Source: a virus
Lineage: Duplodnaviria > Caudoviricetes
IMG/VR virus record: IMGVR_UViG_3300034691_000044
Location: 9,601-73,600 of that record
Direction: 5' to 3' (one strand)
DNA: 64,000 nt
Shown here piece after piece: positions 10,633 to 29,361 of this stretch (position 1 is its first letter; each line of letters begins with the position of its first letter). The notes beneath the pieces were generated by a model, which was given only the letters and a program-made list of their open reading frames with translations, was not told the DNA's origin and made no database searches. The translations under genes were made by a program, and so were the position numbers.

Positions 10633-10872
10633 ATGGAATACATGCTGCTTCGTGATGGGTCTGTGAAGGTTGTACCTGAACTGTCCAATAGGATCTCTGT
10701 TCGCAATGAACTCATACGTTCTGACGGTATTGAGTACTACTGGAAAGAGAACGCTGTAGATTGGTGTTGCATACTGGCTAGTACACCTGCTCTGTCAATA
10801 GACAATGTCGAAGTAACTGTCGATTATGTAGATGTGCCTGATGTAATCAAACTTGCCGCAATGCTGGAGTAA
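10633..10872 (+). CDS. VPE-tail family paralogue 1
   Basis: GAGG RBS; ends DVPDVIKLAAMLE. Confidence 0.8.
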   Translation: MEYMLLRDGSVKVVPELSNRISVRNELIRSDGIEYYWKENAVDWCCILASTPALSIDNVEVTVDYVDVPDVIKLAAMLE

Positions 10873-10875
10873 TGT

Positions 10876-11127
10876 ATGAATATGCATGAATACATGCTAT
10901 TGGCTGACGGTTCTGTACTCCCATTTCCCAATGGTGTGCCAACTGCGCATCAAATAGCATATTTGCTTATTGAATATCGTGGTATAGCCTACTATTGGCC
11001 AGGGGCTATCCAATATCTCGTTGAAGGTTGGTATGTACTGCTTCCTGTATTTGAACACGAAGGAGGCACTCGCATAGATTATGCTGATGTACCCGATCTG
11101 ATCAAACTTGCAATAATGCTTACATAG
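10876..11127 (+). CDS. VPE-tail family paralogue 2
   Basis: Ends DVPDLIKLAIMLT; shares EYMLLxDGSV start with paralogue 1. Confidence 0.8.
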   Translation: MNMHEYMLLADGSVLPFPNGVPTAHQIAYLLIEYRGIAYYWPGAIQYLVEGWYVLLPVFEHEGGTRIDYADVPDLIKLAIMLT

Positions 11128-12480: not shown

Positions 12481-13119
12481 ATGTTTATTGAAAAACCTAT
12501 AACCATCGAAAAGCCGCGCAAATTGATTAATGGGATTGGCGTTAATGATGCCCCTTACTCAGTAAGCTATCGTGAAGACGGTAAGTTAATTACCTGTCCT
12601 TACTACAAGGCATGGGTAGCCATGTTCCAGCGTTGTTATAGCGCTGCATGGCATGAGCGTTACCCGTCATACGTAGGATGTTCGGTAGCACCTGTGTGGC
12701 ATAAATTCACGAGTTTCCGCGAATGGATGCAGACACAGGATTGGGAAACCAAGCAACTGGATAAAGATATAAAAGTACCGGGCAATAAGGAGTACGGGCC
12801 TACTGTTTGTTTGTGGGTGTCCTCGCAAATCAATAGTTTGTTCAATACAGGGGCTCTAGCTAAAAGCGGCCTGCCTGTTGGAGTAACCAAACACTGGAGC
12901 GGACGCTTTGAAGTAGGCGTGAGCTTTGGCACGAGTAAACGTAGCTACGTTGGCAGTTTCAAAACTGTACGTGAGGCTGCTGATGCTTATGTGAAAGCAA
13001 AGGCAGAAGCTATCGCGTTAGCTGCGGACAAGGAACCTGATCCTATAATTCAGGAAGCTGTTCGAGCTTTCGGTGTGCATTACCTACAAAAGCTAAAAAA
13101 TGCAAATACTGCATTCTAA
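12481..13119 (+). CDS. Free-standing HNH-type homing endonuclease
   Basis: GIGVND..W..MFQRCY..YVGCSV..W..F..F..W..LDKDI..GNKEYGP..C motif plus AP2-like C-terminus; strong RBS; extended -10 TGATAGAAT upstream. Confidence 0.8.
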   Translation: MFIEKPITIEKPRKLINGIGVNDAPYSVSYREDGKLITCPYYKAWVAMFQRCYSAAWHERYPSYVGCSVAPVWHKFTSFREWMQTQDWETKQLDKDIKVPGNKEYGPTVCLWVSSQINSLFNTGALAKSGLPVGVTKHWSGRFEVGVSFGTSKRSYVGSFKTVREAADAYVKAKAEAIALAADKEPDPIIQEAVRAFGVHYLQKLKNANTAF

Positions 13120-13476: not shown

Positions 13477-13755
13477 ATGCACCGTTTACGACAAGAACTA
13501 GATTTAACCGATGATTCGTTCAGTTACACCATTTTAGGTGGGCGTGAGCCTCTTTATCGTGTCGATAGCGATGGCTATCTGCATAAAGCAGGTGAAATCA
13601 TCGGTAAATTCAAACTGGGCAACAATCAGTGGCATCTGTACATCGGTGACACTTTGTTCATGGATGGGCCTGAAAATGGCCTATTCATGCTCCCCGAGTT
13701 TGAATTGAAGGCTTTGACTGCGCTGGTAAATCAAAAGCGGCCTTCGGCCCTTTAA
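13477..13755 (+). CDS. Hypothetical protein
   Basis: AAGGAG RBS, 92 aa. Confidence 0.65.
   Translation: MHRLRQELDLTDDSFSYTILGGREPLYRVDSDGYLHKAGEIIGKFKLGNNQWHLYIGDTLFMDGPENGLFMLPEFELKALTALVNQKRPSAL
13739..13749 (+). promoter_or_regulatory. Putative virion-RNAP hairpin promoter upstream of drc
   Basis: GGCC-TTC-GGCC. Confidence 0.6.
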
Positions 13756-14570: not shown

Positions 14571-15290
14571 ATGAACCTGAACGACTTTCTGATGATTCTC
14601 GGCGCAGCTGTGTTCATCTTGCCTATCACTTACATGATTGGCTGGGCTCGCCACCAAAAACAACACGAAGGCTGGGTAGCAGACGCTCGTGAGGGCTACT
14701 TCCAAGAGCGTAATGCTCTACGCAATAGCTACGAGAACGCACTGGCGCAGGAACGTAAGACTGTGCGTGTATTGGAGATTCAACTGCTGAAAGCAAACGA
14801 ATCCATCGAAGTGTTAGATCGTGAGGTAGGTAAGTACCGCAGTCAGTGGAAATACGCTGATAATTACCGTAAAGCTATCGTTGAGTACCTCGTAGTCAAT
14901 CATCTGTGGAAGTTTACTGAACATGGAGATGATCCTATGGCCATGATGGCTGAGATTATCAAATGGGAAACCAAGATGGCGCTGGACCCTGCAATCAGCA
15001 AGCCTGCGAAGAATCTGATCACTCGTGGTGTCCGTAAGGGCGCCAAGGCTGGCCGTGAGCAGATGCGTAAGCTGATGCAGAAGTGCATCGACAACCAGGC
15101 AGCAACCATTCGTCATTATGACCAAGAGTTGACTGCTGCCAATCTTCGCCGTATGCGCTTCACCGAAGCAGTGACCAACGTGCTTGACGACAAGATCGCG
15201 CTTAAAAGCGTCCGTAAGTCTATCAAGCAGGGCATCATTGCGGAACACGGGCGTCTGCACGCTGCTGCCGCGAAGAAGGCTGCACAATGA
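14571..15290 (+). CDS. Membrane-anchored coiled-coil protein
   Basis: AAGGAG RBS; N-terminal TM then coiled coil; ALDPAIS motif. Confidence 0.7.
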   Translation: MNLNDFLMILGAAVFILPITYMIGWARHQKQHEGWVADAREGYFQERNALRNSYENALAQERKTVRVLEIQLLKANESIEVLDREVGKYRSQWKYADNYRKAIVEYLVVNHLWKFTEHGDDPMAMMAEIIKWETKMALDPAISKPAKNLITRGVRKGAKAGREQMRKLMQKCIDNQAATIRHYDQELTAANLRRMRFTEAVTNVLDDKIALKSVRKSIKQGIIAEHGRLHAAAAKKAAQ

Positions 15291-15694
15291 ACATGCGTGG
15301 CTCTGCTAAATGGCAGAGTTACGCTGCATATCAAGGCTATCACGCCAACATACAGGTCTTTGACGACGAGGAGGACGATCCGATGGCTATCGGCAACAAC
15401 ACTGTAAAACGTGCATTCATCAAGCAGGAAGTACTGTGTGCTGTCCTGCAAAATGGCGAATCCGTACACTTTGAGTCCCGTTTGGGGTTCAATGGTGCGG
15501 ACTATGCCAAACAGGCTCATAAGAAGTTCGGCCCGTGTCGGGTGATCTTCTATCAAGCCAATGAAGCACAAATGTGGCGTGAAATCCGTTGGAAGAACGT
15601 CAACGTTGGTGCTTTATACAAACGCCCTTCGTTTATCACATTAGGGCCTGATAAGGTGCCTGAAAACCTGCGGCTTGCCGCAATGTTGTTGTGA
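15287..15694 (+). CDS. VPE-tail family paralogue 3
   Basis: Ends KVPENLRLAAMLL; ATGA overlap. Confidence 0.75.
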   Translation: MNMRGSAKWQSYAAYQGYHANIQVFDDEEDDPMAIGNNTVKRAFIKQEVLCAVLQNGESVHFESRLGFNGADYAKQAHKKFGPCRVIFYQANEAQMWREIRWKNVNVGALYKRPSFITLGPDKVPENLRLAAMLL

Positions 15695-16029
15695 TCATCA
15701 CACTGCCCGACGGTACGATACATATTTACGATGCAAAAGGTACTTTGTGCGTTCGTATGGGCAATTTGGATGCGGAGAGCTTTATGTCAAAGATGGCGCA
15801 TTTAACGCTTGATGGTGTGTACATTACCAGCTATGTCATGGACCAAAACTGGTATTTGCCCACCAAAATGCAGAAATTAGCTGCAACTTACGAGCAGCAC
15901 CAGGCTTGGTGTCTGTCAGCAGGGCAATGGTACACAATACCCGTTGCAGGGCTAAGATTCTCTCGTTGGGATACCACAAGAACTGAGGATGTACCTGAAA
16001 TGGTACGAACTGCGGAGATTTTACGATGA
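15691..16029 (+). CDS. VPE-tail family paralogue 4
   Basis: Ends DVPEMVRTAEILR; GTGA overlap. Confidence 0.75.
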   Translation: MIITLPDGTIHIYDAKGTLCVRMGNLDAESFMSKMAHLTLDGVYITSYVMDQNWYLPTKMQKLAATYEQHQAWCLSAGQWYTIPVAGLRFSRWDTTRTEDVPEMVRTAEILR

Positions 16030-16463
16030 AACAGGTAATTCGTGGTGACATGATGAGTATCTTCGACAAAGTCGATCATTTCATCATATCTGTCGGCAGT
16101 AAGCTCAGAAGTGAGAACAATGAGCTAATAATGTTAAATGGTCTGGCCGGGGCGTTGGGTCTTAAATACCCTACCCTAAAGGTGAAGATGGGAGCGTGGA
16201 TCGCGGGAGAGTGTGGCAGTGAAGGTGAGTTCTACCTTCGTGTCTCGGGGAAGGTTGGCATGCTACAGCATAGCCAGGCTCCTCGGCAAGGGGTGAGCAT
16301 CTCCATTCTGTCTACTGGCCTGCGCCTGCTGGCAGACGAGGCAGAGGCCAACCCAGAAAAGCAATATGCCCTGGAGTGGCCTGGCACCCAGCAGATCGAG
16401 ACCCTGGTAAACCAGATGCTTGATAGGTTGCCGGCCAACGTCCAGGTGTGGCGCCCAGAGTGA
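16026..16463 (+). CDS. Macrodomain-like protein (degenerate)
   Basis: IRGDM...D.FIIS...LIM.NGLAG....KYP.L pattern of phage Appr-1-p/macro proteins. Confidence 0.55.
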   Translation: MKQVIRGDMMSIFDKVDHFIISVGSKLRSENNELIMLNGLAGALGLKYPTLKVKMGAWIAGECGSEGEFYLRVSGKVGMLQHSQAPRQGVSISILSTGLRLLADEAEANPEKQYALEWPGTQQIETLVNQMLDRLPANVQVWRPE

Positions 16464-16702
16464 GCACCATGATCATGTCAGCCCGCTATAACATGGTCTC
16501 CCGGGGGCTGGTGGAAGCGGCCACCTCTTGGGTAGGCCGTCCTGCTCATGATAAGGAACAGACCTTCGCCTTGTTCCACGCGGTCAGCGGTGACCTCAAG
16601 GACACGCGGTGGTACGTCTATGGCATTGCCCATGACGCGATCGCTGTCGAGTACAGCAAACTACCGGAGGCAGTGCGCATGGCGTATCTGTTAATTCAAT
16701 GA
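16460..16702 (+). CDS. VPE-tail family paralogue 5
   Basis: Ends KLPEAVRMAYLLIQ. Confidence 0.75.
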   Translation: MSTMIMSARYNMVSRGLVEAATSWVGRPAHDKEQTFALFHAVSGDLKDTRWYVYGIAHDAIAVEYSKLPEAVRMAYLLIQ

Positions 16703-16965
16703 GCAAGTCACTGTTTGATCCTTTCGGGGGGGATGTCAACCCACGTATGCCACCGGCACCTGTACGGGTGAAGTGGGACTATGAAAAGCAGGAGGTGGTC
16801 AGTGATGGTCAGGCCAACCTGTTCGACAACTGCTGGTCCTACTTCTTCTATGGTGCCGATGAGGCATTGCAGTGGGGCTTGTCCCGCTACGAAGGTGATC
16901 ACCTGTTTATTGTAGAGGGCGCTGTCCCAGAAGTAGTACGGCTTGCCGTAATGGTGATGGAATGA
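16699..16965 (+). CDS. VPE-tail family paralogue 6
   Basis: Ends AVPEVVRLAVMVME. Confidence 0.75.
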   Translation: MSKSLFDPFGGDVNPRMPPAPVRVKWDYEKQEVVSDGQANLFDNCWSYFFYGADEALQWGLSRYEGDHLFIVEGAVPEVVRLAVMVME

Positions 16966-17177
16966 GCACAAAACGTTTAGGTTGGTGCCGGCTGACAGGG
17001 GAACTCGTGCTTGATGCGCAAATCTTAAACATTCCATATCTTCGTGATGATATGGATGTTTACTCCCACAATGGGGCTATGTGGCTAGTATGGACACCTG
17101 AAAGTCAATGCTATTCATATATAACACTTCTGAATGTCCCCGAACTAATTAAATTAGCAATGGTGATGCTCGAATGA
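16962..17177 (+). CDS. VPE-tail family paralogue 7
   Basis: Ends NVPELIKLAMVMLE. Confidence 0.75.
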   Translation: MSTKRLGWCRLTGELVLDAQILNIPYLRDDMDVYSHNGAMWLVWTPESQCYSYITLLNVPELIKLAMVMLE

Positions 17178-17464
17178 GGACTTTCGAACGCGCTGCTCCC
17201 TTCGGGGAGTTCAGCATGGGAACTTTGTTCCTTGTGGTGAACGATATACCGGAAGTATGTCATTGCACATACTATAAGACAAACCTGAAGATTGCCCGTG
17301 AGGCTAAGGATGAAGATCCATTTGCTATTGTGTTTCTGCTTACTGAGCAGGGAACTTGGTTCAAAGGTGACTATTGCTACACAGACGGCAGGCATAAATT
17401 CACTCCTGTGGGTAAGTCAGCTGTACCTCAACTAATCCTGATGATGAACGTGGTGAAACCATGA
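17174..17464 (+). CDS. VPE-tail family paralogue 8
   Basis: Ends AVPQLILMMNVVKP. Confidence 0.7.
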   Translation: MRTFERAAPFGEFSMGTLFLVVNDIPEVCHCTYYKTNLKIAREAKDEDPFAIVFLLTEQGTWFKGDYCYTDGRHKFTPVGKSAVPQLILMMNVVKP

Positions 17465-17766
17465 GCGTATTATGGATCGTGCTAAACGACGACAAATCCG
17501 CAGTTATTGAGGTGTTTGAAACTATTGAGGCAGATTCTAAGCCTCACTGGGATAAGTTCTTTGAACACAGGGCCGGTAACGTCTTCTGTCGCAGAATTCA
17601 GGATTTAGCATGGGTAAAGCCAGCGCAGTCAAAAGTAACGTGGTTCGTCAACTATTTCTACTGGGAAGACATGTCCCGTTGGGGATATGGTGACCCAACT
17701 GGAATGGGTTGGTCTGCCTGCATGGCCATACCTGAAATTCTCAAAATGGTGGAATTCCTGGAATGA
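17461..17766 (+). CDS. VPE-tail family paralogue 9
   Basis: Ends AIPEILKMVEFLE. Confidence 0.75.
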   Translation: MSVLWIVLNDDKSAVIEVFETIEADSKPHWDKFFEHRAGNVFCRRIQDLAWVKPAQSKVTWFVNYFYWEDMSRWGYGDPTGMGWSACMAIPEILKMVEFLE

Positions 17767-18026
17767 GTAAACAAATAACAGTTGGTTTTCTTGATGGAGA
17801 GATAACTGATGTAACTTCTCAATGGATGACAAGTCAAACGGTGGAAGGTCACTTTAGCGTTGGTGATGTGTATGTTTACACTCAAGAGCCTCATGGTATG
17901 CAATGGCGTGTTCTGCAACGTAGTACACGAATAAATGCTACAACTGGCACTTATGCCGCTTTACTACCCTGCAAAGCTGAGCAAGTTCCTGAAATTGTAC
18001 GAATGGTTGCGCTGATGCGCGAGTGA
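17763..18026 (+). CDS. VPE-tail family paralogue 10
   Basis: Ends QVPEIVRMVALMRE. Confidence 0.75.
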   Translation: MSKQITVGFLDGEITDVTSQWMTSQTVEGHFSVGDVYVYTQEPHGMQWRVLQRSTRINATTGTYAALLPCKAEQVPEIVRMVALMRE

Positions 18027-18032
18027 GGAATT

Positions 18033-18266
18033 ATGGGCATTGACGATAGGGTGATAGCTTATATCTTTCGAGGTAAGCTGGAAACCGAGGTAGTAAACCG
18101 CTGGAAAGCCCGGGAACGTATGACTCAGCTGAATAACTGCACACTTGCAGAGATTTACTTCTTTGACCCTGATGGGGAGATTTATGTAATGCATCACAGC
18201 AGGGAATATCGAAAAAAGGCCAAAAGTGTACCAGAAGAGATCAAACTAGCGGCAATGCTGCTATAG
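18033..18266 (+). CDS. VPE-tail family paralogue 11
   Basis: Ends SVPEEIKLAAMLL. Confidence 0.75.
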   Translation: MGIDDRVIAYIFRGKLETEVVNRWKARERMTQLNNCTLAEIYFFDPDGEIYVMHHSREYRKKAKSVPEEIKLAAMLL

Positions 18267-18273
18267 GGGACGT

Positions 18274-18510
18274 ATGCGTATATTCATTCTGAAGTTCGAC
18301 AATACCGTCGAGGTTACGGAGTCTTTTTCCGACCACCCGTACTACACCCACAAGAACTACCAGAAAGGTCAGGTATTCTGCGAGAGGCTTGTAGGCAAGA
18401 GTGATTATTGGTGCGTACTGCACCGAGACCACAAAGGTAATGGCCCCTCGTGGGTTCATTCTGTAAAAGTACCAAAAGAAGTGCTATTCGCACGAATGCT
18501 CGTAGATTAG
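18274..18510 (+). CDS. VPE-tail family paralogue 12
   Basis: Ends KVPKEVLFARMLVD. Confidence 0.75.
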   Translation: MRIFILKFDNTVEVTESFSDHPYYTHKNYQKGQVFCERLVGKSDYWCVLHRDHKGNGPSWVHSVKVPKEVLFARMLVD

Positions 18511-18520
18511 GAGAAGATCC

Positions 18521-19450
18521 ATGAAACTGACACACATGCTCACTGACGACATGCAAAAGGCAAACGAGTATCGATTTGCCAAACAGCATATCGACAAGTA
18601 CATGCGTGACTACGTGCTGAACGACCCTGAAGTCCTGCCCCTGCTGGACAAAGGCGTGGACTTGCTCACCGCCTGGGTCAATACCGAGTTCAGCTACGCA
18701 TCGAAGAACCTCCGGGTCAGTGCCCTACGGGGTATGGACCTGCGTCAGCTCGTTACTGATCTGATTGTGGCCTCGGCCTTCTGCCAGGTGGAAGAACTGT
18801 TCACCAGCTTCACAGCGCGCATGGCCGGCATCCTCGGCTGGGACGATAAGAAGGCCAGCATCACTACCATCGCGGAAATCACCGCGGTGCTATGCGACAC
18901 CGATCTGTATGACCTGACCCAGGCCAACCGGTTCGGCAGCTGGAACATCATCAGCAACATCACGCTGTCCTTGCAATTGCAGGAGTACATCAGCAACTGC
19001 GCATATCTGCCTCCGCTGGTGCATCCACCGAAGAAGCTGCGCCACAACAAGGACACGCCGTATCTGACCATTGGTCAAGACTCGGTGATCCTGAATAAGG
19101 GTCACCATAACGACGATGTGTGCCTTGATGTACTGGATTCAAAGAATTCCGTGGCATTGAGCCTGGACCTGGACTTCCTCTGCAAAGTAGAGGAAGAATC
19201 AAACAGTGAGTTGGATACTCCCGAAAAGCAAACCATGTGGTTGAACATGAAGCGCCAGTCGCACGAGTTCTACTTGCTCATGGCTGGCCAAGGCAATAAG
19301 TTCTACTTGCATCACAAATACGATAAACGTGGGCGTATCTACGCCAATGGTTATCACATCTCGACTCAGGGTGCGCCCTTCAAAAAGGCATGCTTAGAGT
19401 TCGCCAATAAAGAAGTCGTATCCGACATCCCACAGGAGTTTCAATTATGA
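18521..19450 (+). CDS. RNA polymerase II subunit 1 (N4 gp15-like)
   Basis: FYLHHKYDKRGRIYANGYHISTQG (DxRGRxY motif of T7-like RNAPs). Confidence 0.92.
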   Translation: MKLTHMLTDDMQKANEYRFAKQHIDKYMRDYVLNDPEVLPLLDKGVDLLTAWVNTEFSYASKNLRVSALRGMDLRQLVTDLIVASAFCQVEELFTSFTARMAGILGWDDKKASITTIAEITAVLCDTDLYDLTQANRFGSWNIISNITLSLQLQEYISNCAYLPPLVHPPKKLRHNKDTPYLTIGQDSVILNKGHHNDDVCLDVLDSKNSVALSLDLDFLCKVEEESNSELDTPEKQTMWLNMKRQSHEFYLLMAGQGNKFYLHHKYDKRGRIYANGYHISTQGAPFKKACLEFANKEVVSDIPQEFQL

Positions 19451-19887
19451 GCACTGAAAAGCAGCTGTACCTTGCACTGAAGAACATTCTGGAGCCATAC
19501 CGTTCAGGTATGGAATCGGGAGACTGGTGCGGTGAGCCAAATGCCCAGACAAAAAAGGAAATTGCTGACGCTGAGGAAGCATTAGCGTGCTTTGAACTGG
19601 ACCTTGGCCCGTTGCCTGATTGGGCATCTGCCCACAACATTGCACAAGAACCTGTGACATATGCACAGCTTTTCACCCGGAACCCTCGCCGTAATGGCAA
19701 TGCCATGATCTTCTACGTAGGTACTTCCCATTTCGGTGTTATCACCGACATGGGTAACGCTATGACACTGAGTCTTGTGGAGTTGCATCAATTGTACGAG
19801 ATTGGTGACTACATCATGGACGAACGTGGTTATGAGAAGCGTAAGCGCCAACGTGACGATTATATGGTTCCGTTGGAGGCTGACTGA
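19447..19887 (+). CDS. Hypothetical protein
   Basis: 146 aa, coupled to RNAP1; AQLFTRNPRRNGNA motif. Confidence 0.7.
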   Translation: MSTEKQLYLALKNILEPYRSGMESGDWCGEPNAQTKKEIADAEEALACFELDLGPLPDWASAHNIAQEPVTYAQLFTRNPRRNGNAMIFYVGTSHFGVITDMGNAMTLSLVELHQLYEIGDYIMDERGYEKRKRQRDDYMVPLEAD

Positions 19888-20177
19888 TGGCAAGACTGTT
19901 CATTCGGCATAAACCGGTGGATTGCAACGTACAGATGGGCAAGTCCAGCGAAAATATGTTCTTAATGCGTCGTGATGTACTAACTGCGCATGGAATTAGC
20001 CTGGATGCTTACTCAATCGACTGTGCATACGTCTGTGTTGCGCATGAAGGTAAGATATGGGCAGTAAGGAGCTTCGGGGCACACCCTGAAAGCTCCATTG
20101 TCCGTGTGCAGTGCGTTCCTCTAGACGATCAGCCATGTGTGCAACAGATGCTGCTGACTGGCATGATTCTCAATTAA
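19887..20177 (+). CDS. Hypothetical protein, possible divergent VPE-tail member
   Basis: 96 aa, coupled; ends QPCVQQMLLTGMILN. Confidence 0.65.
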   Translation: MARLFIRHKPVDCNVQMGKSSENMFLMRRDVLTAHGISLDAYSIDCAYVCVAHEGKIWAVRSFGAHPESSIVRVQCVPLDDQPCVQQMLLTGMILN

Positions 20178-28533: not shown

Positions 28534-29361
28534 ATGTCCATCAAAACCATCGCGCAAGTCCGTCGCATCCTCGATATCCACTACACCTCCCAGGGCATCA
28601 TTCGCCCACACTTCTTCCTGACCGGTCCATCCGGTTCGGGCAAGACGTACAACGTCGAAGGTCTTTGCGACGAGCTGATGATGCCGATGTACGAAATCAA
28701 CTGCGCCCAGCTGACCAAAGAAGGTCTGTCGGGCAACTCGTTGTCCAAAGCCTTGGCGCCAATCGCCAATAGCGCGATGGCACCGGCTGTCGTGTTCTTC
28801 GACGAATTCGACAAGCTGTTCATCCGTGGTAACTCCAACTCTGATCTGGCGGACGATTCGACCACCAGCATCCAGAATGAGTTGCTGAAGATCCTGGAAG
28901 GTCGCACCACCAGCGTGTACACCGGTAAGTACGGCCAGTACGAAGAAATCACCATCAACCATTGCCTGTTCATTTTCGGTGGCGCCTGGAACGGCGAAGC
29001 TGATATCGATCTGGATCGTCTGCGTGCTTTCGGCGTGAAGACCGAATTGCTGGGCCGTGTTGGCCTGGTCTACTCCATGGAGAAGGTGCAGCTCGACGCA
29101 CTGCTGAAGGCAGTTGAAACCAGTGAATTACTGGATAACTACCTGAAAATCTACACCGACGTGGTGCGTGAAGACGTGGTGACCATGGTGCAAGACGTGG
29201 TGCGTGAGAACTACGAACTGAACACCCTGGGCTATCGCCAGATCTCGGCATTGCTCCACCAGTACTTCATCAACGGCACGTTGAAATCGGAGAAGAAGCA
29301 GCCTGTGTTCAAAAAGGCGCTGTCTCTCCCGAAAGCGGACAACCTGTTCGCCGACGCTTAA
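28534..29361 (+). CDS. ClpX/HslU-like AAA+ ATPase
   Basis: GPSGSGKT, LTKEGLSG, FFDEFDKL, IQNELLKILEG, LFIFGGAW, ELLGR. Confidence 0.85.
   Translation: MSIKTIAQVRRILDIHYTSQGIIRPHFFLTGPSGSGKTYNVEGLCDELMMPMYEINCAQLTKEGLSGNSLSKALAPIANSAMAPAVVFFDEFDKLFIRGNSNSDLADDSTTSIQNELLKILEGRTTSVYTGKYGQYEEITINHCLFIFGGAWNGEADIDLDRLRAFGVKTELLGRVGLVYSMEKVQLDALLKAVETSELLDNYLKIYTDVVREDVVTMVQDVVRENYELNTLGYRQISALLHQYFINGTLKSEKKQPVFKKALSLPKADNLFADA

Follow-up and report, generated by a model that had tools for sequence, protein, structure and literature searches.

The DNA analysed here, a stretch of 64,000 nucleotides called the window in the following, comprises bases 9601-73600 of a 73.6 kb viral contig (IMG/VR record IMGVR_UViG_3300034691_000044) whose ends are direct terminal repeats. 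All positions are given in window coordinates, which equal genome coordinates minus 9600. The closest named relative of the window is the Pseudomonas phage phCDa (Schitoviridae, Shizishanvirus), to which 80% of a 4 kb query aligned with 75% nucleotide identity. According to the list of open reading frames (ORFs), the + strand carries twelve small ORFs of 71-135 residues, ten within 15287-18510 and two at 10633-11127, that end in a similar C-terminal tail and are referred to here as p01 to p12. An earlier note on this DNA had singled them out by their ends; all of them are present and the ten C-termini it quoted were correctly read. Together the twelve paralogues take up about 3.7 kb, or 5% of the 73.6 kb genome.

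The upstream pair consists of p01 (10633-10872, 79 residues, tail DVPDVIKLAAMLE) and p02 (10876-11127, 83 residues including an MNMH extension, tail DVPDLIKLAIMLT), which are 40% identical and represent the 'MEYMLL' subtype to which most of the 39 database representatives described below belong. The main array opens with p03 (15287-15694, tail KVPENLRLAAMLL), which has 135 residues when counted from the first ATG although its match to the family profile begins at about residue 33, and with p04 (15691-16029, 112 residues, tail DVPEMVRTAEILR), whose GTG start overlaps the stop codon of p03. The next gene on the + strand (16026-16463, 145 residues, ending in NVQVWRPE) lacks the family motif and is called the interloper here. 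The ten ORFs that had been described as one tandem array are thus real, but the array is broken by this unrelated gene. It resumes with p05 (16448-16702, 84 residues from a GTG or 77 from the ATG at 16469, tail KLPEAVRMAYLLIQ), p06 (16699-16965, 88 residues, tail AVPEVVRLAVMVME), p07 (16962-17177, 71 residues, tail NVPELIKLAMVMLE), p08 (17174-17464, 96 residues, with the deviant tail AVPQLILMMNVVKP), p09 (17461-17766, 101 residues, tail AIPEILKMVEFLE) and p10 (17763-18026, 87 residues, tail QVPEIVRMVALMRE), the last of which scored highest when the whole genome was searched with the profile (E 2.7e-24). Between p03 and p10, neighbouring genes overlap by 4 nt (stop/start), with the sole exception of a 16-nt overlap if p05 begins at its GTG. 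The array ends with p11 (18033-18266, 77 residues, tail SVPEEIKLAAMLL) and p12 (18274-18510, 78 residues, tail KVPKEVLFARMLVD). Its downstream end is marked by the + strand gene for the small subunit of RNA polymerase II (RNAP1, N4 gp15-like, 18521-19450), which is 90.9% identical to the phCDa 'RNA polymerase small subunit' by tblastn and has tblastn matches to 402 phage records. Both polymerase subunit genes, RNAP1 and RNAP2, follow the array on the same strand, and the placement of the array in the early region directly upstream of them, as proposed before, is borne out.

A profile made from the twelve proteins retrieved exactly these 12 ORFs from the 73.6 kb genome, with E values from 2.7e-24 to 8.9e-10 and no other match up to E 10. 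The recovery of all twelve was given by construction, since the profile derives from these very proteins; the same profile also found 12 matches in phCDa and 8-12 in each long metagenomic locus. Two ORFs with vaguely similar ends, one of 96 residues at 19887-20177 and one of 92 residues at 13477-13755, were excluded as the profile search listed only the twelve copies. Pairs of paralogues other than p01/p02 share 9-23% identity, and their bodies had been considered unrelated. Instead, all twelve fit one profile and share, besides the Trp and the tail, a hydrophobic strand at the N-terminus that leads into a D-G-like turn, and an aromatic strand. Across 66 aligned members taken from 7 genomes, a Pro is invariant (66/66) and the Trp is present in 63, located 9-31 residues before the Pro, in agreement with the aromatic strand and upstream Trp that had been pointed out earlier. 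The tail itself consists of the Pro, an acidic residue (E or D at +1 in 57/66), hydrophobic residues at +3, +5, +6, +8 and +9 and a K or R at +4 (51/66), and in 65 of the 66 members the protein ends 10-11 residues past the Pro.

How rare this pattern is by chance was assessed with the regular expression [VIL]P[EDQK]x[VIL][KRIL][LMTF][AVM], composed from the observed tails. It has 12 matches in the six-frame translation of the 64 kb window, all on the + strand and 12-13 residues before a stop, and no further match anywhere in the six frames; the 12 hits are again given by construction because the expression derives from the tails, and the controls speak only to the rarity of the pattern. Two hundred codon-shuffled windows contained 0.34 matches on average and two at most. 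Among 439 stop-to-stop ORFs of at least 60 residues, 12 have it in their last 16 residues. The conservation of the tail is at the protein level: its V, P, E, L and A are encoded by differing synonymous codons among the copies, the paralogue tails have 55% nucleotide identity compared with 41% residue identity, and the longest exact nucleotide match between any two paralogue 3' ends is 12 nt. The conserved end therefore does not act as ribosome binding site, promoter or repeated element for recombination. Position +10 after the Pro is variable, and 14 kinds of residue occur at the very end of the 66 proteins, most often E (19) but also R, D, P, G and T.

Two copies of the window, p01 and p08, were modelled with AlphaFold2 using the paralogue alignment. 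The p01 model (predicted local distance difference test score, pLDDT, 85.9; predicted template modelling score, pTM, 0.75) and the model of p08, the copy with the most deviant tail (pLDDT 82.6, pTM 0.73), agree in the order of their elements. Independently made BFVD models of phCDa proteins fit in with this: 8 phCDa rows match p01 with template modelling (TM) scores of 0.53-0.79 and 6 match p08, the p08 model and the BFVD model of its phCDa orthologue reach TM 0.96, and the phCDa paralogue models overall score 0.45-0.96 against p01 and p08. The predicted common fold is strand-strand-helix-strand-strand-strand-helix (E-E-H-E-E-E-H). In both models the tail forms the final helix, with pLDDT values of 93-95 for p01 and 80-91 for p08. 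Judged from pLDDT, pTM and the residue pattern, this helix would be amphipathic, would have a capped start and could pack against the sheet. We read it as a structural keystone and not as a detachable tag because it is modelled as the last amphipathic helix of the domain; the models thus lend no support to the earlier idea of a separate docking tag. Across the paralogues the isoelectric point (pI) ranges from 4.3 to 8.9 and the net charge from -7 to +3. The two AlphaFold models, the BFVD matches and this range of pI favour the view, already expressed in the earlier note, of one small fold with a diversified surface.

The family is absent from the libraries that we searched. In Pfam, three of the ten array paralogues had one weak match each (E 0.017-0.17), all under the family cut-offs, and 30 MEYMLL-subfamily members matched 8 different families with one member each (best E 0.031). 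PHROGs gave no match for the ten array paralogues or for p01 and p02, and none of the twelve matched NCBIfam or PADLOC. A search of the PDB with the sequence profile ended at a best E of 1.3, and Foldseek found no PDB match for p01 at E <=0.001. VIA-align against 48,161 chains reached best Z scores of 4.5 (p01) and 5.3 (p08), below the best Z of 7-8 that models lacking a true match typically reach. The ESM Atlas held no match >=0.9, and its closest structural rows (GYF_2, DUF4314 and others) had TM scores of 0.40-0.49 to a poor Atlas model. Among the papers listed on N4-like (Schitoviridae) early genes and anti-defence, on phCDa and on 5T87/CdiA, none appeared to deal with the family. That this is not a recognised, described system is supported by this literature and by the Pfam, PHROGs and NCBIfam scans. 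The family, its predicted fold and the cassette-wise exchange of alleles reported below are new to the libraries and literature searched; the general kind, tandem small early phage genes that are re-assorted between relatives, is already known.

Relatives were found in large sequence collections. A profile search of 1.84 billion cluster representatives yielded 39 proteins at E <=0.001, of which 38 have 72-94 residues and match end to end. The remaining one, P0027, a 468-residue repeat protein with 7 matched stretches (E 1.1e-4), is regarded as a chance low-complexity match and was kept out of the alignments. As all credible profile matches are full-length proteins of 72-94 residues, there are no fused forms among them. 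With the alignment of the MEYMLL subfamily, ten IMG/VR loci were found to encode relatives. Of ten clusters looked up, five have a member on a 72-75 kb contig and the other five occur only on contigs <=8.5 kb; none of the ten carries an informative protein name. With p02 as query, tblastn of 50,697 phage records returned only the two phCDa records (E 3e-3). Every locus with enough flank has 8-13 copies in one layout, with 1-4 MEYMLL-type copies about 4-5 kb upstream, followed by the main array with its interloper and then RNAP1. The gene order of the array is kept in phCDa and in N4-like metagenomic contigs of 72-75 kb.

The range of the family is narrow and comprises N4-like phages of the Pseudomonas fluorescens group. 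Littlefixvirus (phages Littlefix and 98PfluR60PP) has a similar array at the same position, around an orthologue of the interloper and beside RNAP1, with the tail variant [IL]Pxxh[KQR]MxxL[VI]GA[IL]. Candidate distant members are gp49-52 and gp54-56 of Littlefix and gp81-83 and gp85-86 of 98PfluR60PP. The window profile matched Littlefix gp55 and its 98PfluR60PP orthologue with E values of 1e-5 to 4e-7 in a small database, and there were three weaker matches. When the window and Littlefixvirus alignments were compared by hhalign, only 19 columns of the tail were aligned (E 0.0019, probability 14%). Fold matches reached TM scores of 0.66/0.73 and 0.57/0.63. Homology beyond the tail is thus weakly supported by sequence and better by the fold matches. 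An open frame in Littlefix outside the listed coding sequences (L012, 7244-7492) ends in ..TEVPQLILMAHLIGV, resembling the tail of p08, and the same ORF is found in 98PfluR60PP (L015, 2-175). The early regions of N4, PEV2, KPP21, Zuri and FBKp27 contain no profile match at E <0.05. It is doubtful whether the gp18-type protein of PEV2 (115 residues, ..VPPEIRAQSLLFD) is a single-copy Litunavirus relative, with an hhalign probability of 5.5% (E 0.007, 32 columns) and an hmmsearch E of 0.21; a 115-residue protein of phage MAG4 is listed with TM scores of 0.45/0.38.

In the earlier note the array had been pictured as a gene accordion of hypervariable copies. Within the window, BLAST matches between paralogues are at E >=0.009, with the exception of p01/p02, while for each paralogue 4-6 of 6 related loci hold an orthologue at the corresponding position (E <=1e-5), and most of these matches are far stronger. 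Such faint similarity between paralogues combined with positional orthologues means that the duplications predate this phage group and that the array is not a current accordion; near-identical copies are lacking and every paralogue has its own old line of orthologues. Copy number varies modestly, between 1 and 4 in the MEYMLL cluster, and single cassettes are absent from some phages. The ratio of nonsynonymous to synonymous divergence (dN/dS) could be computed for 21 comparisons and lies at 0.11-0.54 in 20 of them. Only p11 compared with its counterpart in L003 is higher (0.86), at distances near saturation; L003 is a related locus, from a phage otherwise near-identical to that of the window. 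Hypervariability in the sense of fast protein evolution does not find support, as dS is as heterogeneous as dN. Since each copy is an old lineage under purifying selection, the copies are probably not redundant.

The variation is strikingly mosaic. RNAP1, RNAP2 and the interloper of the window have protein identities of 96-99% to their L003 counterparts (RNAP1 98.7%, interloper 98.6%), whereas the paralogues have identities of 98, 98, 83, 77, 72, 64, 62, 51, 42 and 28%. The two most similar are p02 (97.6%) and p08 (about 98%), with dS of 0.055-0.084, while p01, p06, p07, p10 and p11 are at 28-64% with dS of 0.85-1.44 or saturation, although genes of both kinds are adjacent. For three of the divergent copies, the L003 allele is less similar than an allele from a more distant phage: p06 is 42% identical to the L003 allele with saturated dS, p07 is 71% identical to the allele of locus L005 compared with 62% for L003, and p11 is 45% identical to the phCDa allele compared with 28% for L003. 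The high dS rules out fast protein evolution as the sole cause and indicates old alleles joined by recombination. In a 30-nt identity profile against L003, blocks with identity of about 100% adjoin blocks with less than 50% at three positions, each change taking place within 30 nt: 16709 (between p05 and p06), 17154 (in the tail of p07) and 17454 (between p08 and p09). Further joints were seen in contigs from other public runs (X2-X12), which covered parts of the stretch only and in which joints of <95% likeness with short sides can mislead. In L003 and in the RNA-library contig of run X3, 822 nt at 15122-15945 are replaced by 171 letters; p03 is absent from both, and L003 retains only the last ~28 codons of p04, this tail being left fused upstream of the interloper. 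The segment from 16703/16704 to 17151 is replaced in an RNA-library contig (447 letters) and in a wastewater contig (440 letters), and in runs X4 and X12 a joint of 18262 to 18506/18507 corresponds to the loss of exactly the p12 cassette. Megablast of all locus pairs, restricted to blocks of >=93% identity, reported only window/L003 and L005/L006 and missed blocks that are visible in the 30-nt profile. Overall, the sequence comparisons indicate that whole cassettes are exchanged, lost and gained at cassette borders among related phages. The 96-residue ORF at 19887-20177 between RNAP1 and RNAP2, which has no match to the family profile, is mosaic as well, with 45% identity to L003 and 71% to the more distant phCDa.

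The twelve ORFs can be understood as a multigene family of small (about 70-110 residues), soluble, presumably single-domain proteins of an N4-like, Shizishanvirus-like Pseudomonas phage. The array genes are probably produced together and early in infection, considering their position on the early-gene strand upstream of the RNA polymerase II genes and the 4-nt stop/start overlaps at eight of their junctions. In the PEV2 record, the syntenic gp16-gp18 are labelled 'Transcribed in early infection (RNA-Seq data)'. A contig of 3473 nt from an RNA library covers an L003-like array, which is a weak hint as DNA may occur in such libraries. A scan for sigma-70 promoters gave 7 sites compared with a mean of 14 in shuffles, N4-type promoters being outside the models of the scan. 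Each paralogue might use its diversified surface to bind a different host component in the service of host takeover or counter-defence, and cassette exchange would allow phage lineages to re-assort the repertoire against varying hosts. This reading draws on the early-region position, the coupled translation, the small domains with pI values of 4.3-8.9, the retention of lineages and the re-assortment of alleles taken together. That the family is an early host-interaction family in which each member has its own host component and the repertoire is shuffled among phages has, in our estimation, an even chance of being correct. Several points weigh against it. There is no match to a known host-takeover, anti-defence or other family in Pfam, PHROGs, NCBIfam or PADLOC, no fused form among the credible matches hints at a partner, and with dN/dS below 1 the codons carry no sign of an arms race. 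The two window models share rows of the paralogue alignment and are mutually dependent. Mosaicism between close relatives rests mainly on one pair, window and L003, and on metagenome contigs, and breakpoints at the tails are partly expected because diverged alleles become alignable again there; any enrichment of breakpoints at cassette borders is confounded by this conservation. Finally, the tail surpasses the core strands in conservation, beyond the needs of a core helix, and the chain invariably stops right behind it, which may leave room for an added shared function.

This last point bears on a rival proposal that goes back to the earlier note: one common partner would bind every paralogue by its C-terminal helix, or by the face of that helix which would be exposed (E/D at +1, K/R at +4, M at +8), while the bodies bind different targets. 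It would account for the tail being the most conserved segment of otherwise 9-23% identical proteins, for the persistence of a variant in Littlefixvirus, for the fixed distance from the Pro to the end of the protein and for the conservation of the charged residues at +1 and +4 although these would face solvent. A Pro followed by an acidic residue and, three positions on, by a basic residue is an ordinary helix-start and salt-bridge pattern. The same spacing in the tail, together with the modelling of the helix as an integral, high-confidence element, makes docking rather unlikely, though it retains an appreciable chance. A bolder version would unite it with host interaction: besides being the keystone, the helix would serve all copies as a shared handle for a single hub, either phage RNA polymerase II or a host hub protein, each of the twelve bodies would have its own host target to capture, and cassettes would be swapped at the tail borders. 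We consider this combination unlikely; if true, it would be the phage equivalent of multigene families known from large eukaryotic viruses. Another possibility is that the paralogues are accessory or specificity factors of the phage's RNA polymerase II. Such a role would explain the fixed position upstream of the subunit genes, as RNAP1 directly adjoins the array not only in the window but also in phCDa, the metagenomic loci and Littlefixvirus, and the genes are translationally coupled in the manner of stoichiometric sets. Adjacency alone is weak evidence, however, and the early regions without a profile match belong to phages that have the same polymerase. Paralogue alleles that differ by up to 72% from L003 are also a poor fit to RNAP1 and RNAP2 that are 96-99% identical, and a polymerase factor is improbable in our view.

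Probable co-expression by coupled translation, the terminal location of the shared elements and a helix that is more hydrophobic than a purely surface helix would all suit a hetero-oligomer formed by the paralogues through the N-terminal strand and the C-terminal helix. A fixed assembly is hard to square with 8-13 copies per locus and with cassettes missing from some phages, and we regard it as distinctly improbable. Several tails have a hydrophobic end such as LAAMLL, which the earlier note likened to degrons; a non-polar C-terminus could serve as a degron or as a decoy for proteases (ClpXP, Tsp, Lon). A last residue of 14 kinds, most often E, does not support this; a conserved terminal tripeptide at the free C-terminus, as in ssrA-like degrons, was not found among the 66 members, the conserved part is the helix and not the terminus, and the terminal residues are modelled within or directly after the confident helix. 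The chance of this explanation is very slight. Equally slight is the chance that the 3' ends are conserved for DNA or RNA, for example as the ribosome binding site of the next gene or as a recombination site, even if the stop/start overlaps, a GGAG or GGTG inside some last codons and the coincidence of cassette borders with breakpoints would be in line with it. The free variation of synonymous codons and the nucleotide identity of 55% with exact matches of no more than 12 nt argue for selection on the protein, and the motif, which begins about 36 nt ahead of the start of the next gene, reaches too far upstream for a ribosome binding site.

Among the nearest parallels to the array are families of eukaryotic viruses. 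The multigene families (MGF) of African swine fever virus (ASFV) and the Bcl-2-like families of poxviruses consist of tandem paralogues of a small fold with diverged surfaces and strain-variable copy number that are thought to meet varying host factors. The phage family resembles them in having tandem paralogues of one small (predicted) fold, diverged surfaces and variable copy number. It differs in that immune evasion is experimentally known for the eukaryotic virus families, while the phage proteins have 70-110 residues, share a C-terminal helix and are known here from sequence. In the hyperplastic regions of T4-type phages, modular shuffling is brought about by repeated promoter stem-loop cassettes, so that what repeats is a regulatory DNA element between genes. 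Both systems have strings of small early ORFs that are reshuffled among related lytic phages. However, no repeated DNA of >12 nt links the cassettes of the array, its ORFs are mutually homologous and most of its junctions are 4-nt overlaps; the same DNA element does not recur at the junctions, where the longest 3'-end match is 12 nt and the mean tail identity 0.55. Another tandem family is present in KPP21 (L014, 199-2618), in which about 12 neighbouring ORFs of 61-83 residues share ..[LY]xxLLSDKYxKE.. and a later Trp. It is probably the kind of cluster that has been reported for LUZ7 as an 'extra cluster of small genes' (PMC3715699). The KPP21 cluster likewise consists of tandem small genes in a Pseudomonas phage of the Schitoviridae, but it has no profile match at E <0.05, a different motif and a different genome position.

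Resemblances to single domains were of less use. GYF_2 (PF14237) is a small strand-strand-helix-strand domain with aromatic and Trp motifs and has TM scores of 0.40-0.42 to the Atlas model of p01, but that model is poor (pLDDT 0.42) and Pfam gave no GYF_2 match for the ten array paralogues or the 30 MEYMLL-subfamily members. Chain E of PDB 5t87, from a contact-dependent inhibition (CDI) complex of Cupriavidus taiwanensis, was listed first for p01 and second for p08, with Z 4.5 each, a root-mean-square deviation of 2.5-2.7 A and 54-62 of 69 residues superposed. Kinship or function was not deduced from it, as this Z is far below the background of 7-8 and identity is 4-8%.

The early genes of lytic phages are a large reservoir of uncharacterised host-takeover and counter-defence functions. 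Retention combined with re-assortment between otherwise near-identical phages marks the genes of this array as a place where such phages differ in their dealings with the host. The proteins are small, predicted to be soluble and confidently modelled, which should make bench testing easy. Provided that the paralogues bind different host factors, they would constitute a natural set of inhibitors of Pseudomonas proteins and a clear case of cassette-wise phage evolution, with a generality that is limited by the narrow range of the family.

With regard to the neighbouring genes, the interloper has a weak match to phrog_335 'phosphatase' (E 5.6e-6), no match in Pfam and a best E of 1.7 in the PDB sequence search. 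Its orthologues adjoin RNAP1 in Littlefix (gp53), PEV2 (gp17) and KPP21 (ORF060) at 32-37% identity, and its near-identity to the L003 copy stands amid mosaic neighbours. A 275-residue AAA+ ATPase at 28534-29361 (PF00004, E 9.7e-15) had been called 'ClpX-like' in the earlier note. The early region further contains a gene for a free-standing HNH endonuclease (12481-13119; phrog_953, E 1.9e-70). A 110-residue early protein at 13808-14140 matches phrog_6271 'toxin' (E 1.5e-12), a label that seems to reflect annotation habit; according to the PEV2 annotation, the counterpart in that phage, gp13, has strong early transcription.

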